From a virus, in UHGV virus genome UHGV-0358463: a stretch of DNA of 35,359 nt; one strand, 5' to 3'. The translations under genes were made by a program, and so were the position numbers. Below are positions 11,142 through 17,550 of the stretch, in pieces. Each line of letters begins with the position of its first letter. The first letter of the stretch is position 1. A model generated the notes under the pieces. That model was not told the origin of the DNA. It did no database searches and was given only the letters and a program-made list of their open reading frames with translations.

Positions 11142-12137
11142 GTGACCGTGAGAGCACTACTGACTCCTGAAATAGCCCCGCGTATGGGGATCGTATTGTT
11201 CAGACCCGGTTCAGAGCTGATGCCCCTGTTTATGCAGGGGCGTGTCCTGCTGGAGCCTGAGCCGGAACGTTATTCATCTTTCGCCAGTGGTGCCGTTCCC
11301 GCGGCATCACAACCGCTGGCGGATGATCCTGCCGTTCGGGCCGTGTTCTGCAATGAGGCAGTGATCCGTCGTACTGGTGGCGTGGAATGTCTTGAAAGCT
11401 GGTTACTTCGTGAAAAGGGCTGTCAGTGGCCTCATTCCGACTGGCACAGCGAGAACATGACCACAATGCGACACGCGCCGGGCGCGATCCGTCTGTGCTG
11501 GCACTGCGATAACCAGCTGCGCGATCAGTTCACGGAACGGTTGGAATCAATGGCAACGGATAACTGTGCCCGCTGGGTGTTGTCTGTTGTGCGTCGGGAT
11601 CTCGGTTTTGATGACAGTCACGTTGTGACAATGCCGGAACTGTGCTGGTGGCTGATTCGTAATGACCTGGCGGATGCCTTACCGGAAAGTGCAGCCCGTA
11701 AGGCACTGAGATTACCGAAGCCTGTTGTGCCGTCTGTCACCCGGGAAAGTGACCTTTTTCCTTCGGTTCCTGCCACCAGCATTATCCAGGATAAAGCGAA
11801 ACAGGTGCTGGCGCTGAAAGTGGATCCAGAGTCGCCGGAGTCTTTTATGTTACGCCCAAAACGTCGCCGCTGGGTTAATGAAAAGTACACGCGCTGGGTT
11901 AAGACACAGCCGTGTGCATGTTGTGGAAAGCCTGCTGATGATCCCCACCACCTGATAGGTCACGGTCAGGGTGGAATGGGTACAAAAGCGCATGACCTCT
12001 TTGTGTTGCCTTTGTGCAGAAAGCATCACGACGAGCTGCATGCGGATACCGTGGCATTTGAAGAGATGTATGGCTCCCAGTTGGAACTGATATTTCGTTT
12101 TATTGATCGTGCGCTGGCAATTGGCGTGCTGGCCTGA
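11142..12137 (+). CDS. DUF968-like phage protein with Cys/His-rich C-terminus
   Basis: 331 aa; GTG start at 11142 (alternative ATG downstream); C-terminal CACCGKPADDPHHLIGHGQGG...CRKHHDELH suggests a zinc-binding, HNH-like motif. Confidence 0.6.
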   Translation: MTVRALLTPEIAPRMGIVLFRPGSELMPLFMQGRVLLEPEPERYSSFASGAVPAASQPLADDPAVRAVFCNEAVIRRTGGVECLESWLLREKGCQWPHSDWHSENMTTMRHAPGAIRLCWHCDNQLRDQFTERLESMATDNCARWVLSVVRRDLGFDDSHVVTMPELCWWLIRNDLADALPESAARKALRLPKPVVPSVTRESDLFPSVPATSIIQDKAKQVLALKVDPESPESFMLRPKRRRWVNEKYTRWVKTQPCACCGKPADDPHHLIGHGQGGMGTKAHDLFVLPLCRKHHDELHADTVAFEEMYGSQLELIFRFIDRALAIGVLA

Positions 12138-12154
12138 TTTGGTGGAGAAAGTTG

Positions 12155-12502
12155 ATGCGTGATATGTATGAAGTATTGGACCGCTGGGGAGCATGGGCTG
12201 CAGCAGAAAATAGTGGTGTGGACTGGCAGCCGATAGCGGCTGGTTTCAAGGGACTTTTACCACACGGTAAAAAGTCACGTCTCCAGTGTGATGATGATGA
12301 AGGCATCATGATAGATAGTTGTGTGGCTAGGTTGCGTAAATATAAGCCGGAAGAGTATGAGCTGATAATTGCTCACTTTGTTATCGGTATCTCATTACGC
12401 ACTATTGCGAAGAAGAGAAAATGCTCTGATGGGACTATAAGAAAAAAGTTGCAAGCTGCATTGGGATTTATTGATGCAGTTATATATATAATACATGGGT
12501 AA
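12155..12502 (+). CDS. late-gene antiterminator Q (phage-82 Q family)
   Basis: 115 aa from the ATG at 12155 (GGAG Shine-Dalgarno); MRDMYEVLDRWGAWAA...DGTIRKKLQAALGFIDAV resembles phage-82-type Q proteins. Confidence 0.75.
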   Translation: MRDMYEVLDRWGAWAAAENSGVDWQPIAAGFKGLLPHGKKSRLQCDDDEGIMIDSCVARLRKYKPEEYELIIAHFVIGISLRTIAKKRKCSDGTIRKKLQAALGFIDAVIYIIHG

Positions 12503-12509
12503 TTTATTA

Positions 12510-12528
12510 GACGGCCATATTGGCCGTC
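12510..12528. terminator. perfect 8-bp hairpin (GACGGCCA-tat-TGGCCGTC) between convergent Q and cassette genes; possible bidirectional terminator
   Basis: Palindrome read directly; flanked by AT-rich sequence on both sides but no clean T-tract. Confidence 0.3.
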
Positions 12529-13705
12529 AGCTAAATAAATATGTAATAGCATAAGGCGTAAGTAAAAAGTAGAACCTAAATGTAAGATATAAGCCACATA
12601 AAACTATAATTCCTAATGAGGCAAAAACAACTTTCTGAACAAGCAATCTTGTGGTTAAACTATCAAATGTATCCTTTATATCTTCGTAAATAGCCTTGAA
12701 GTTATATTCTGCTTGTTGTTTTTTATGATTTAACTCATCATTTATTGCTGTTAAAGTTTGCCATTGATTAAATAGAACAAATAGAATCATAATAGTGAAG
12801 AACAATGCACCCAACACTACAGCTGTATTTATTAATGCTTGACTATCCCAACCATTAGCCTGCTTCATTTGAGTCGCAACGATAATTGTTGCGACGGGGA
12901 TACCTAATATCTGATTTTGTATGTCACTGAATACTTTATGTATTTTTCCCATCTCTTCTATTTTGGCTACTCGTAACTGATCCAGTATTTTCTCGTAAGA
13001 AAAACCAGAAACGAATACTTTGTATCCTTTTTGATAACTTTCATAAAGTTGTCCTAAATCCCTTAACATGAAGGAAAAAGAGGTTTCTTTAGTTTTAGAT
13101 TCACATGATGATTTTATGCTACTTGCTAAAATAGTAAGTTTTTGATCTTTATGCGTATCTTCTGCAAAGTTTGCGATCAAATTATGAATCAGATCTCCAT
13201 TAACATTCATAAGATCATCGCTAGAATAATTTACTGGAATTTTTAGTACGTTGGATTCGACGAATACCAATTCAAAATTTGTTTCATCTAAATAAGCAGA
13301 ACAATCTTTGAATAAAGTAATTAAGCTCAAAACATCTCTGTACTTGGATATAATAGCAGGCGACTTTTTATCCCTGTTGTGATAATTAAGTTCGATTATA
13401 AAGAAGTTACTGGCTTCCTTTATCCTATTTTTAGGATTTTTTAAATACTCATTAAAAGAGAAATGTAGCTGCCCCAATCGTAATTTGGGGGGGGTTATAT
13501 GTAAGGTTATAGTTTGGCCTAACTCAATGTTGCCAGATTCAAGGGTGATGCCAAAATCATGGGGATTCTCTGTGATATCGTTGATGATGTTACAGAGCTC
13601 CTCGTTTGAAAGAATGAGTGATGCTTCAGATAGGGTACCTGCAAATGTAGCGGCCTTGTAAATAGTCACTAAGTCTTTGAAGGTTCTCTGATTGTTACTG
13701 CTCAT
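12527..13705 (-). CDS. cassette gene B: protein with a large soluble N-terminal domain and two C-terminal hydrophobic helices
   Basis: 392 aa from the ATG at 13705 (ORF track gives 13714, a GTG); hydrophobic segments ALINTAVVLGALFFTIMILFVLF and KVVFASLGIIVLCGLYLTFRFYFLL; overlaps gene A by 11 nt. Confidence 0.7.
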   Translation of the reverse strand: MSSNNQRTFKDLVTIYKAATFAGTLSEASLILSNEELCNIINDITENPHDFGITLESGNIELGQTITLHITPPKLRLGQLHFSFNEYLKNPKNRIKEASNFFIIELNYHNRDKKSPAIISKYRDVLSLITLFKDCSAYLDETNFELVFVESNVLKIPVNYSSDDLMNVNGDLIHNLIANFAEDTHKDQKLTILASSIKSSCESKTKETSFSFMLRDLGQLYESYQKGYKVFVSGFSYEKILDQLRVAKIEEMGKIHKVFSDIQNQILGIPVATIIVATQMKQANGWDSQALINTAVVLGALFFTIMILFVLFNQWQTLTAINDELNHKKQQAEYNFKAIYEDIKDTFDSLTTRLLVQKVVFASLGIIVLCGLYLTFRFYFLLTPYAITYLFS

Positions 13706-14729
13706 CCTCTTCACCTAATTCTGATAAAATCTCTGATCTTAGCGTATCCGGAATCTCGGTAAGTATCAATTTATCGTTTTCTGAATCATAAAGAACGCTG
13801 CCATCATGCAAGGCCGCACGCTCGAATTTCAGAGACCAATGTTTGGACTTTCCTTTGAAACTAACAAGCCCACGTATAACGTTGCCATCAGGCACGAACC
13901 CATCAGAGAACTCCAGATCGTCATTGGTTAACTTTTCAACTAACAACTCAGGAGCAGTTGGCCATATCTCGTTTGCAAAAACTTGAGTGTCGAAAGCTTC
14001 ACCAGAACGATTTAAATTTTTTAATTTTTCATGAGCCTTATTTAGGAACTCTTCACGTGCCTCTGGTTCAAAACCTCTTTCAGTAGCAAATTCTAAAAGT
14101 GCATTCCGTAATTTTGTTGTTTCTTGTTTGGCAATTAGAATATCGTTGCAACCTAAAAACTTTTTGAAATAACCTGCTACTGAATTTTGCCCCTTTAGAA
14201 AGCTAATATATCTCTCTTTGCCATTCTGGCGCCCAGTTAAGTCAATTCGTCCCGCTACTCGAAGTTTAGCAATGTCTAGATATTCACTTTCTTGAATTTC
14301 AAAATCGTGGACTGAAGAGCCAACTGCTGATGTTAGGATTGCAACCATCAAATAATGATTTCCATTTACCTCATTATGGGCAATTATTACATAACCACCA
14401 GTAGACATTGATTCATCATCGGCTCTGGCTTTTAAATGATTGATCATTCGGATACTAGTATCATAAAAACTATGTGTTTTATTTACGAAATAATCATCAA
14501 CGATATTACCCATAGGGTAACTATCGCGGTCATCTTCAAATTTACCATATCCTTTACCTGCTCTCCCAGAGTACCTTTCAGTAAGTGCGTTAGAGAGGTC
14601 TTTTGATGCTTGCTGAACAGGTTTTTCTGAAGGACAAGGAATAATGGTGGCTAACCCCTGTTGTTCCTTGTTCATAATGTGAACAATAAACTTATGAGTG
14701 ATATTAGTGGGGGTCGCTGATGCAGTCAT
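13695..14729 (-). CDS. cassette gene A: NdpA/YejK-like nucleoid-associated-protein family homologue
   Basis: 344 aa; AAGGA Shine-Dalgarno at 14738-14742. Collinear matches to E. coli YejK recalled from memory: GGYVIIAH..YLMVAILTS, YLDIAKLRVAGRIDLTG, RYISFLKGQ, VAGYFKKFLGC, LILTEIPDTLRSEI. Confidence 0.75.
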   Translation of the reverse strand: MTASATPTNITHKFIVHIMNKEQQGLATIIPCPSEKPVQQASKDLSNALTERYSGRAGKGYGKFEDDRDSYPMGNIVDDYFVNKTHSFYDTSIRMINHLKARADDESMSTGGYVIIAHNEVNGNHYLMVAILTSAVGSSVHDFEIQESEYLDIAKLRVAGRIDLTGRQNGKERYISFLKGQNSVAGYFKKFLGCNDILIAKQETTKLRNALLEFATERGFEPEAREEFLNKAHEKLKNLNRSGEAFDTQVFANEIWPTAPELLVEKLTNDDLEFSDGFVPDGNVIRGLVSFKGKSKHWSLKFERAALHDGSVLYDSENDKLILTEIPDTLRSEILSELGEEDEQ

Positions 14730-14845
14730 AACAACATCCTTTTAATGGTTTTGAACAATTGGTGTTGATAATACTTCAAAAAATACTAATGCGTACGCAA
14801 AAAATACAGTACTCTGTTAAGAGTGGTTACTTCGCCACACAGCTT

Positions 14846-14876
14846 AAACCCGCCGTCGAGCGGGTTTTGTCGTTTC
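14846..14876 (+). terminator. intrinsic terminator upstream of the lysis genes (candidate tR-prime-like site for Q antitermination)
   Basis: AAACCCGC-cgtcga-GCGGGTTT followed by TTTTGTCGTTT. Confidence 0.5.
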
Positions 14877-15019
14877 TGGGCTTTGGTATTCGTTGGGCTT
14901 GGTCTATCTAGCTCTTATCCATTGGCTCGGCTTCTTTTACGTTTCCGCTTCTGATTTGCGGTTCGTGGTACTCCCTCAATTTGCACCTCTTGTATCGGCG
15001 AGGTGAGAGATAACTACAA

Positions 15020-15346
15020 ATGCCTCATAACCCAAATACCTGGCTGGAGTTGGTCCAGAGCTGGTGGCGTGGAGACACACCGCTGGGCGCAGTGATTATG
15101 TCGATTGTTATGGCTGGTTTGCGCATTGCCTATTTTGGCGGTGGTGGTGGCTGGAAGCGAAAAACACTCGAAATTCTACTCTGTGGCGCTCTGACGCTGA
15201 CTTTTGCATCCGCTCTTGAGTATGTCGGATGGCCTAAATCGCTTTCTGTTGCCATTGGTGGTGGGGTGGGGCTGATCGGTGTCGATGCTATTCGTGGGGC
15301 TGCAATGAGAGTAATCGGTAATAAGTTTGGTGGCTCTAAGGAGTAA
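15020..15346 (+). CDS. putative holin
   Basis: 108 aa, first gene of the lysis cassette; hydrophobic segments GAVIMSIVMAGLRIAYFGG, LEILLCGALTLTFASALEYVGW, SLSVAIGGGVGLIGV. Confidence 0.6.
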   Translation: MPHNPNTWLELVQSWWRGDTPLGAVIMSIVMAGLRIAYFGGGGGWKRKTLEILLCGALTLTFASALEYVGWPKSLSVAIGGGVGLIGVDAIRGAAMRVIGNKFGGSKE

Positions 15347-15349
15347 TTT

Positions 15350-15826
15350 ATGCAGGTACTAAATTCCCAGCGTAAAGCTTTCCTCGATATGGTGGCATGG
15401 TCAGAAGGAACGGATAACGGGCGACAACCGACACGTAACCACGGTTATGATATTATTGTTGGTGGTGAACTATTCACTGATTACTCCGATCACCCTCGCA
15501 AACTTGTCACGCTAAACCCCAAACTCAAATCAACAGCTGCAGGCCGTTATCAACTTCTTTCACGCTGGTGGGATGCTTACCGCAAGCAGCTTGGGCTGAA
15601 AGACTTCTCTCCAAAAAGCCAGGATGCTGTGGCATTGCAGCAGATTAAAGAGCGTGGCGCTTTACCGATGATTGATCGCGGCGATATTCGTCAGGCTATC
15701 GATCGTTGCAGCAATATCTGGGCTTCACTGCCGGGCGCTGGTTACGGTCAATATGAACATAAAATAGGTGACCTGATTGCCCGATTCAAAGAGGCTGGCG
15801 GGGTGGTAAATGAAGTTGAGCTATAA
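15350..15826 (+). CDS. endolysin, lambda R-like lytic transglycosylase
   Basis: 158 aa; near-identity in long stretches to lambda R as recalled (NQRKAFLDM.AWSEGTDNGRQ.TRNHGYD.IVGGELFTDYSDHPRKLVTLNPKLKST). Confidence 0.9.
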   Translation: MQVLNSQRKAFLDMVAWSEGTDNGRQPTRNHGYDIIVGGELFTDYSDHPRKLVTLNPKLKSTAAGRYQLLSRWWDAYRKQLGLKDFSPKSQDAVALQQIKERGALPMIDRGDIRQAIDRCSNIWASLPGAGYGQYEHKIGDLIARFKEAGGVVNEVEL

Positions 15827-16202
15827 GCTGGTTATCGCAGCATTCTTCTCTACTGTCATCGGTTCTTTCATCTGGTCTGCTAACCACTACTACAGCAAAT
15901 ATCAGCACGAAAAGAAACGTGCTGATGAGGCTGTACAAAATGCTGAATCCGCAACCGCTATTACCAATAATGTCCTGCAATCACTGCAAATCGTCAATAC
16001 AGTTCTGGAGGCTAACCAGCATGCAAAACAGCAGATCGCACTGGAGTCACAGAGAACCCAGGAAGATATCAAAGTGGCTGTTGAGAATGATGATTGCGCT
16101 TCCCGTCTTGTTCCTGCTCGTGCAACTGAGCGGCTGCGCCGGTACGCGGACAATTTACGTACCAGTTCCGGCGGTACCACTACCGGCGAACCTGACCGCT
16201 GA
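15810..16202 (+). CDS. i-spanin (Rz-like)
   Basis: 130 aa; N-terminal membrane anchor LVIAAFFSTVIGSFIW then coiled-coil-like sequence; overlaps the endolysin 3' end. Confidence 0.7.
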   Translation: MKLSYKLVIAAFFSTVIGSFIWSANHYYSKYQHEKKRADEAVQNAESATAITNNVLQSLQIVNTVLEANQHAKQQIALESQRTQEDIKVAVENDDCASRLVPARATERLRRYADNLRTSSGGTTTGEPDR

Positions 16203-16344: not shown

Positions 16345-16538
16345 AGCAGTAAAGTGGAAAGATCGCAGCAAGAAGTGCCTGTTCAGAATTAATGAAGATG
16401 CCTCAAATACCTAAAATAGCGAGTAGCCAGATGCACGTCAACTACGAGTGTGTGGCCAGCATAACGTTGTATAAACTAAGTGATAGCAGAGTTCAATATA
16501 CGTATACTGAGAGAACTATTTCTATTTGAGAACTGAAA

Positions 16539-17132
16539 ATGACGGACTATACTTTTTTTTACTGGATAGAGATGCTTCTTAAAGAAGGCAATGTTTTATT
16601 TATTGTTCTTGCTTGTTTGATTGTCTTTTTTACTTTAAAAAAAGAAATAATAATGGTTTTAGGTCGTCTTAATACAGTTAAGCTAGGTGACTATGAGATT
16701 AAATTTAAAAAAGAAATGTTTGAAATAGAATCTAAAAGTATAGAGGTTATTAAAAATTTACCTGGAACAAATCCTGTCCTGCCGACACAACTCATTGAGA
16801 ATTTCAATATTTTTGAGAGTCTTGCTAGTACTCAGCCTAATGTTGCTGTACTTTCAGCTTGGCGCGAATTGGAGTTAACCGCTATAACGCTTGCATCTAA
16901 AAAGGGGATTGAGATCAACGGGACATCTTTAGGGCGGGCTTCAGGTATCGCTGCCTTGAAAAATGTCCAATCTGCAAACAAAATTTCTAGTGACATTGTT
17001 AAGCTTTATGAAAAAACAGGAGAGTCTATTAAGCCTATATCCCAAGGAAAGCTCTTATGTACTCAGGAAGATGCTTTGGCATTCTGTAAGAATGCAAAAA
17101 GACTTAGCAATTATTTAACATCCATATTTTAG
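16539..17132 (+). CDS. hypothetical membrane-anchored protein in an AT-rich moron
   Basis: 197 aa; N-terminal hydrophobic helix NVLFIVLACLIVFFTL; AT-rich unlike flanking phage genes; no family recognised. Confidence 0.55.
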   Translation: MTDYTFFYWIEMLLKEGNVLFIVLACLIVFFTLKKEIIMVLGRLNTVKLGDYEIKFKKEMFEIESKSIEVIKNLPGTNPVLPTQLIENFNIFESLASTQPNVAVLSAWRELELTAITLASKKGIEINGTSLGRASGIAALKNVQSANKISSDIVKLYEKTGESIKPISQGKLLCTQEDALAFCKNAKRLSNYLTSIF

Positions 17133-17208
17133 TATGTATCCATAGAGCATCCATTATTATTGGAGTAGTCGTTACAGCAGGCATTCACTGAGTGCCTGCT
17201 GCTGAACT

Positions 17209-17421
17209 CTAATAGCAAGATGGAGAATCTGCATTAAATTTTTGAGAGAGATTACTTATTTCATTCACTCCCTTATGATTAAGTAATCGCCTAATATTTT
17301 CTGGAGCCTTGAATATAAATGGGCCTTTTAGATCCTCGATGATTCCTCCTGCGACGCAGATCAAATGCTTGAAATCAACATCTTCAATTGTGGGCTTGGA
17401 GTCCAGATTATCGCTTGTCAT
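17209..17421 (-). CDS. hypothetical small protein, 70 aa
   Basis: ATG with AAGGA about 9 nt upstream; convergent with the 197-aa gene; AT-rich. Confidence 0.4.
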   Translation of the reverse strand: MTSDNLDSKPTIEDVDFKHLICVAGGIIEDLKGPFIFKAPENIRRLLNHKGVNEISNLSQKFNADSPSCY

Positions 17422-17550
17422 TTAAAAACATCCTTTCTTGCCATTAGCAGCATTGAGCATGTTATGGAATCTGTAATTTAGGATGCTGGTACTACCAGTA
17501 CTTTTTTTGTTTCATTTTGTGAATCACCTCATTTACGAGGGGAGCCTATC

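Follow-up and report, generated by a model that had tools for sequence, protein, structure and literature searches.

Probable late-gene control unit of a lambdoid prophage, set apart from its Q gene by an exchangeable cargo slot

In phage lambda, the late promoter pR' carries a Q-binding element between its -35 and -10 hexamers, followed by a -10-like pause element and by a terminator ahead of gene S. The distance is short, 78 nt from the Q stop codon to the start of transcription; AACGAT serves there as the sigma-dependent pause element, and the terminated RNA is 194 nt long. In phage 21, the Q-binding element occupies positions within -40 to -1 and works together with a sigma-dependent pause element (structures 6P18 and 6JNX), and the paper on Q21 states as a general layout that the Q gene is followed by the PR' unit. 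In the Escherichia coli K-12 element DLP12, QuuD/YbcQ has been reported to control the lysis cassette (Rueggeberg et al. 2013, as cited in PMC7918800), while PMC3851460 describes the interval between Q and the lysis genes of SfIV as a low-GC moron flanked by transcription signals. Stx phages also carry accessory genes between Q and S, with stx itself placed downstream of the late promoter, in the same orientation and under Q-dependent control. Finally, the defence hotspots of P2 and P4 (Rousset et al. 2022, PMC9122126) combine conserved flanks with variable low-GC cargo that is rich in known or candidate defence genes.

The locus studied here belongs to an E. coli prophage, in a viral DNA stretch of 35,359 nucleotides (UHGV virus genome UHGV-0358463), to which we refer as the window. 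Comparison with relatives delimits in it a conserved unit at 14778-14871 that comprises a putative late promoter, Q site and terminator, and that lies not beside Q, as in the canonical layout, but far beyond it: the inferred start of transcription is 2318 nt from the Q stop, a distance that measures 78 nt in lambda and some 44 nt where the site is empty in relatives. We consider it likely, with a probability of roughly 85%, that this unit is the late-gene control unit of a lambdoid prophage, and that the 2.3-kb gap in front of it is a slot for exchangeable cargo. The displacement of the promoter unit is a feature of layout and not of mechanism. The features on which the argument draws are the following.

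12152-12502, plus strand: Q antiterminator gene, 116 aa from TTG 12152; PF06530 (Phage_antitermQ), E=1.2e-44
12477-12502, plus strand: cargo-specific 3' end of Q, tail AVIYIIHG and stop; DNA identity to other class A loci stops at ~12476
12510-12528, both strands: hairpin at the point where Q and the cassette converge, between their stops; -15.2 / -16.3 kcal/mol, z -4.1 / -4.9
12527-13714, minus strand: cassette gene 2, product of 395 aa whose C-terminal part is hydrophobic
13695-14729, minus strand: cassette gene 1, 344 aa, homologue of NA37 (YejK/NdpA-like) nucleoid-associated proteins; PF04245, E=1.5e-68
14730-14800, minus strand: cassette 5' region, with SD AAGGA at 14737-14741, two -10 candidates and a -35 candidate
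14768-14773, minus strand: -10 candidate TATTAT, 21 nt from TTGCGT
14771-14776, minus strand: -10 candidate AAGTAT, the in-register hexamer, 18 nt from TTGCGT
14795-14800, minus strand: -35 candidate TTGCGT, formed by the right palindrome half and the A-run; overlaps the putative Q site
14778-14815, plus strand: putative late promoter (pR'-like), found directly after Q in empty-site relatives
14778-14783, plus strand: A6 tract, part of the late promoter region
14786-14791, plus strand: weak -35-like CTAATG, 2/6 match to consensus
14790-14799, plus strand: palindrome TGCGTACGCA, putative Q-binding element that covaries with the Q helix; an A6 run comes next
14810-14815, plus strand: -10 TACTCT (TAnnnT); TAnnnT stands here in every sequence found, a universality that is built into the cross-genus search, which required it
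14819-14838, plus strand: start site and initial transcribed region, inferred start G14821, then GGTTACTTCGC
14819-14824, plus strand: -10-like AAGAGT, candidate sigma-dependent pause element, 3/6 match to TATAAT
14846-14877, plus strand: putative intrinsic terminator (tR'-like); stem-loop 14846-14867 of 8 pairs (5 G-C), then T-rich tail TGTCGTTTCT
15020-15346, plus strand: holin S; PF05106, E=5.7e-25
15350-15826, plus strand: endolysin R; annotated homologues in SfII and SfIV
15810-16202, plus strand: Rz; annotated homologues in SfII and SfIV

The unit follows the same logic as in lambda, from a promoter through a putative Q-binding element and a candidate pause element to a terminator before S. 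Their recognition relies on comparison, since a consensus scan of both strands of 14730-15019 called no promoter; it is by homology that a sigma-70 promoter is predicted upstream of the lysis and late genes. In particular, TAnnnT precedes G[T/A]TAAGAGTGGT in every sequence found, which predicts a start 6-7 nt downstream and puts the palindrome at -31 to -22 relative to the inferred start, within the range of -40 to -1 occupied by the element of phage 21. The initial transcript, AAGAGTGGTTACTTCGC, resembles that of lambda pR', AACGATGGGTTAATTCGC: the first transcribed bases are AAGAGT GG TTACTTCGC in the window and AACGAT GGG TTAATTCGC in lambda. AAGAGT may be a pause element: it keeps the important A2 and T6, it precedes GG, just as the lambda element does, and it lies inside the deeply conserved TAAGAGTGGT, a conservation that stems in part from the design of the search. 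Another candidate for the pause element, TGGTTACTT, was rejected, its TTAC differing between genera, and the A6 tract at 14778-14783, which we at first read as an UP element, may instead or in addition hold the -10 of a divergent promoter in relatives. A small 5-bp hairpin can be drawn at 14823-14838 in the short RNA from the late promoter; it is 82% paired across 51 sequences with almost no covariation, and its conservation may be one of DNA rather than of RNA structure.

The putative terminator has a fold energy of -12 kcal/mol at 14846-14867 and lies 2343 nt past the Q stop and 152 nt before the holin ATG. The scan that finds such hairpins returned 7 terminator-like sites in 6 kb against 5.5 expected, i.e. 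about the chance rate, and for this reason the significance of the terminator derives from its conservation and position: its stem is kept in relatives with different loops, and the mosaic boundary with the downstream genes falls in its T-tract. Without Q, a terminated RNA of about 48-50 nt is predicted. In a preliminary description of this locus, the hairpin had been taken as the only terminator-like one ahead of the lysis genes. This holds in the sense that it is the sole plus-strand hairpin with a T-run between the Q stop and the holin ATG at 15020, and needs amending in that a second strong hairpin, at 12510-12528, stands just past Q, where it has no U-run on the plus strand. A scan of 12300-15300 against Rfam (E<=1) gave only chance matches to snoRNAs.

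What sets the window apart from lambda becomes clear once relatives are aligned. In megablast comparisons, what phages have in common is Q, to the left, and a short piece to the right that ends at the terminator; the DNA between the two differs. Phages 1720a-02 and PPyecE_EH1910 have no cargo, so that ...TTAGCGCGGTCCGCAAAAAGTATGTCAGTATGTTAAGAGTGGTTACTTCGCCACACAGCTTAAACCCGCCGCGAGCGGGTTTTTTT appears about 40 nt past the Q stop, and SfII and Stx2a_1447 hold other two-gene minus-strand cassettes in the same place. In order to see how general this is, IMG/VR prophage and viral contigs were scanned for the exact 28-mer GTTAAGAGTGGTTACTTCGCCACACAGC (window 14816-14843), which gave 120 loci and, together with four fetched phage loci and the window, a set of 125, 107 of which have a recognisable Q upstream; the conservation of the 28-mer stretch in this set is, of course, partly by construction. 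The slot is empty in 27 of the 107 loci, with the element 27-44 nt after the Q stop, and occupied in the other E. coli-type loci (80/107), with the element 525-3780 nt away. An independent, Q-seeded scan of one genome per species yielded 58 further loci from about 45 species of Enterobacterales (genera including Yersinia, Serratia, Erwinia, Xenorhabdus and Klebsiella), of which 51 are occupied. The preliminary description had measured the window against a norm in which the promoter unit comes directly after Q. That norm describes lambda, with its 78 nt, whose Q does not belong to PF06530; in the Q subfamily considered here, the majority state is the cargo-bearing one. The distance of about 2.3 kb between Q, which ends with TAA at 12500-12502, and its presumed target was correctly given, and the case that was to count against an insertion, i.e. 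the same spacing in relatives devoid of inserted genes, did not occur: the spacing follows the size of the cargo. To the right of the T-tract there are two downstream types, either the lysis genes directly or a methylase with tRNAs and stx, from which we conclude that Q and the element behave as one module. In two Serratia loci (L172 6475-7330, S. montpellierensis; L176 6474-6800, S. marcescens), tandem copies of about 110 bp follow Q directly, forming an array of three to at least seven copies of the whole unit of palindrome, promoter, short transcript and terminator.

One may ask whether the late promoter and Q site could not, after all, sit directly after Q (12503-12530) or inside the cassette, with 14846-14867 being an unrelated terminator and late transcription running antisense across the cassette. 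Such a reading would restore the canonical lambda layout, and it could point to the hairpin at 12510-12528 that follows Q. However, the sequence after Q is cargo-specific and different in every cargo class, that hairpin lacks the U-run and no conserved promoter accompanies it, while the conserved element, the covarying palindrome and the start known from K-12 are all found to the right of the cargo. We therefore regard this arrangement as extremely unlikely. The empty-site relatives, the covariation of the palindrome and the K-12 start all agree with the original proposal that the cassette lies between Q and the site of Q action, and not downstream of the late promoter.

The cargo itself is diverse. 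The 80 occupied loci hold 24 classes of it, all of low GC (0.29-0.42), and in all 35 of 35 ORFs of at least 80 aa picked across classes the coding strand is the minus strand. Among ten cargo proteins submitted to PADLOC, there were matches to KwaB of Kiwa (2e-150), to PDC-S20, a KAP NTPase (2e-108), to PDC-S33, a RelA/SpoT protein (2e-114), to PDC-M53A (2e-32) and to PDC-M68A, an HNH protein (8e-27). Further cargo, read by eye from translations, includes methyltransferase-like and P-loop ATPase-like proteins as well as the porin NmpC, the last with the help of the K-12 nmpC annotation; no recombinase gene was seen among the cargo ORFs inspected. Judged by sequence comparison, the slot has marks of a moron site, namely presence and absence of DNA between the same two phage features and a base composition unlike that of the neighbours, and those of a defence hotspot, namely conserved flanks around diverse cargo that includes known defence systems. 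The likeness to the P2 and P4 hotspots is evident, although these belong to another phage family and have other flanking genes, while the slot in the window is flanked by a regulator and the regulator's own presumed DNA target. Bracketed in this way, and occupied in most relatives across the order, the slot accommodates 24 or more types of cargo in E. coli-type prophages, which makes it a convenient place to mine for candidate defence genes.

In the window, the cargo is a cassette of two overlapping minus-strand genes (12527-14729) between Q and the holin gene, with a GC content of 0.27-0.45 (0.36 for the cargo) against 0.5-0.6 in the flanks. The very same cassette occurs in 16 complete E. coli genomes, at 97.4-99.9% identity over a 3.5-kb query; strains JX21CE8 (NZ_CP178438) and APEC20/16 (NZ_CP127297) both reach 99.9% over 11900-15400. 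The NA37 homologue encoded by gene 1 has no PADLOC match, and the product of gene 2, taken to be a membrane protein, has neither a Pfam nor a PADLOC match. In another locus (L084, cargo class 5), the same slot holds a different protein of 391 aa with an NA37 domain (E=1.2e-23) and a zinc-ribbon-like motif at its N-terminus. NA37-type proteins may accordingly be a recurring type of cargo, possibly a defence type, and the presence of an unrelated NA37 protein in the same slot is only a hint toward a defence role for the cargo of the window.

The isolated phages SfII, SfIV and Stx2a phages show the same layout, with cargo in the same slot. In SfIV and SfII, two minus-strand genes are followed by the same element and by a holin region that is 93% identical to that of the window; the cargo genes differ from those of the window, and the SfII cargo matches the PADLOC candidate PDC-M53A. 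Stx2a_1447 likewise has a cassette upstream of the element. Unlike the stx genes, which are co-oriented with the late promoter, the cassette of the window lies upstream of it and antisense, and should be independent of Q. A cassette between Q and its target is, then, the usual layout for this Q family, and the window is an ordinary example of a known insertion hotspot, to which the present analysis adds the precise anatomy and the family-wide pattern. As for the literature, an incomplete survey turned up the moron remark on SfIV, in passages that say nothing of where the late promoter stands relative to the moron, as the only mention bearing on a defence hotspot between Q and the late promoter, and no paper that places the late promoter beyond the cargo or notes a Q-palindrome code or a shared divergent promoter. 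In terms of annotation, the late promoter, Q site and tR' would now be assigned to 14778-14871 and not to the vicinity of Q.

One tie between the element and Q is the pairing of the Q recognition helix with the palindrome. This pairing has no exceptions in 101 prophage loci, most of them from E. coli, that encode 44 distinct Q proteins, nor in the 58 Q-seeded loci of other Enterobacterales, an association that could in part reflect physical linkage. The helix KCSDGT[IV]RK (class A), present in the Q of the window as KCSDGTIRK, goes with GCGTACGC, the helix DEKxIRI (or SEKxIRI) with GCGGTCCGC, and the DLP12-type helix SDGYIGK with ACGTACGT, while further helix types go with ACAATCGT/ACGATCGT, GCGGAATTCC, GTAATTAC and TTCGTTACGAA; the 101 loci include three rarer helix types, each with its own palindrome. 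The palindromes are 8-11 bp long and sit between the weak -35 and the -10, and those of classes A and B differ only at the centre (TA vs GTC). Since the flanks of the palindrome are common to several Q classes, to the point that L023 and L038 differ only in the palindrome centre, it appears that recombination has reassorted the sequences around the palindrome, which itself has remained coupled to its Q. By this comparison, the promoter carries a putative Q-binding element that is specific to its cognate Q. The strict pairing amounts to a ready-made specificity code, open to swap tests. The putative Q-binding elements of the subfamily (loci L001-L205) were all palindromes, as exemplified by GCGTACGC, GCGGTCCGC, ACGTACGT, GTAATTAC and TTCGTTACGAA.

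Q21 and the Q of the window share the same sigma-R4-like DNA-binding fold family, and the phage 21 Q structures are the only solved PDB relatives of the window protein, albeit remote ones (E=0.003): Q21 has 162 aa, and it binds two 8-bp subsites arranged as a direct repeat, in contrast to the palindrome of the window. This difference, along with the fact that palindromes are typical of recombinase and repressor sites and that the cargo boundary adjoins the element, could be taken to mean that the element serves chiefly in the exchange of cassettes, as a site of recombination or insulation, its palindrome being the site of a recombinase or repressor rather than of Q. Yet the element is unchanged in loci that have no cargo, the palindrome follows the Q helix and not the type of cargo, the cargo comes without a recombinase gene, and the element, which lies immediately ahead of the lysis genes, contains a -10, a mapped start and a terminator. 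We hold such a primary role to be very unlikely, and retain the reading of the palindrome as the probable Q site.

The mapped start comes from DLP12. In K-12 the order of this prophage, with nmpC at its textbook position, is quuD, nmpC and IS5 (minus strand), the conserved element, and essD/rrrD/rzpD. Like the window, DLP12 thus has a Q of the same family (46% identity between QuuD and the Q of the window) and antisense cargo between Q and the lysis genes; its element differs at 1 of 28 core bases and lies about 135 nt upstream of essD. It departs from the window in having porin cargo, a different Q class and the palindrome ACGTACGT. The Cappable-seq table lists a single plus-strand start between U00096.2 576081 and 576907, at 576452 (PMC4782308). 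This start, though weak (relative score 1.7), coincides with the predicted base: it falls on the final G of GTTAAG in DLP12, 6 nt past the -10 TATGCT, and its equivalent in the window is G14821. The offset of +776 from U00096.2 to U00096.3 is presumed from lacZ coordinates and should be good to about 1 nt. A supplement of E. coli 3' ends (PMC7815308) has no entry for the region of the DLP12 element. The DLP12 cargo has a long upstream region, of about 370 nt, in which there is also a strong plus-strand start: at U00096.2 576081 (L125 ~6857), within the nmpC upstream region, there is a Cappable-seq start with a score of 90, some 370 nt upstream of the weak pR'-like one, and it may serve the published reporter of the DLP12 lysis cassette (-121 to +650).

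Turning to the other side of the slot, the Q gene is preceded by nin-region-like genes (RusA-like, KilA-N and DUF968 by Pfam), so that a Q-family antiterminator closes the early-right operon, as a Q-dependent late-gene cassette demands. ATG 12155 is a likelier start for Q than the listed TTG 12152, with GGAGAAA 7 nt upstream. Comparison with relatives that lack the cassette, which the preliminary description had called for, has defined both boundaries: on the right the conserved element, and on the left a putative recombination junction at about 12477, inside Q. Namely, class A Q proteins end in a different hydrophobic tail of 8-14 aa for each cargo type (L003, L004, L011, L012, L023 and others), which indicates that the last Q codons and the stop are supplied by the cargo module, and the C-terminal tail of Q seems to tolerate such replacement.

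This raises the question of whether Q was damaged by the insertion, with its C-terminus replaced and the protein inactive, so that the late genes would be Q-independent or the prophage defective. The last 8 codons of Q are indeed cassette-derived, and the protein has 116 aa as compared with 126-127 aa in empty-site relatives. That said, the class A Q proteins of isolated phages (SfII and Stx2a_1447) are just as short and have other tails, the protein of the window is intact up to and including its recognition helix, and class A Q proteins with varied tails are conserved across many genera. An inactive Q is, in our judgement, very unlikely. The cassette transcript probably ends at the hairpin at 12510-12528, between the convergent stops, which may also be an obstacle to early transcription leaving Q.

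On the reading of 14778-14871 as the late-gene control unit, the circuit would operate as follows. Two conserved sequences flank the slot, to its left the body of Q and to its right the Q-site unit. In the lysogen, Q would not be made, the late promoter would yield only the short terminated RNA, and the cassette would be free to be expressed. Its transcript probably starts at a promoter that stands back-to-back with that of the late genes and ends at the hairpin at 12510-12528; as the cassette lies outside the late operon, its expression should not depend on Q and is most likely to occur in the lysogen. Upon induction, early rightward transcription would pass through Q and then antisense across the cassette, and Q would load at the palindrome and the promoter-proximal pause and modify RNA polymerase, which would then read through 14846-14867 into S, R, Rz and the remaining late operon. 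As Q is a diffusible protein, 2.3 kb between its gene and its site should not break the circuit, and for the same reason the current understanding of Q-dependent control is not overturned.

The preliminary description had also placed the cassette promoter in the interval of the late promoter, on the opposite strand, and had proposed TATTAT (14768-14773) as its -10. Comparison bears out the interval: the start codon of the NA37 gene is only 46 nt from the conserved element, so that the cassette promoter must overlap the element. The hexamer fares less well, for TATTAT is no better than chance: the AT-rich cassette has about 7 equally good hexamers per kb on each strand, so that about 0.8 are expected in the 116-nt stretch. 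Across 66 distinct class A contexts, on the other hand, a TAnnnT lies exactly 17 nt from TTGCGT in 36 and 16-18 nt away in 43, while other offsets average about 2 and none exceeds 9. The in-register hexamers vary (TATAAT, TAGAAT, TAAAAT, TATATT, TAAGAT and others), and this variation argues for selection on function. It appears from these alignments that the promoter of class A cargo generally stands back-to-back with that of the late genes and has its -35 in the putative Q site. The register in the window, 18 or 21 nt, is off this family pattern, which leaves AAGTAT and TATTAT both as candidates, and class B elements show no divergent -10 in a fixed register, for which reason the shared divergent promoter cannot be generalised. 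Taken further, the slot might be a hotspot for antisense cargo and defence genes that is general to the lambdoid prophages of Enterobacterales, with Q and the palindromic site as the homology arms by which cassettes are exchanged, and with the class A palindrome providing the -35 of the cargo, such that binding of Q would act as a two-way switch, turning the late genes on and the lysogen cargo off. We offer this wider scheme tentatively and consider it, as a whole, somewhat doubtful.

A second low-GC island (0.28-0.41) is found at 16392-17450, between Rz/Rz1 and the HNH and terminase genes. It contains a 197-aa ORF at 16539-17132 on the plus strand, for which there is no Pfam or PADLOC match, and a 70-aa ORF at 17209-17421 on the minus strand, and it is probably another moron.
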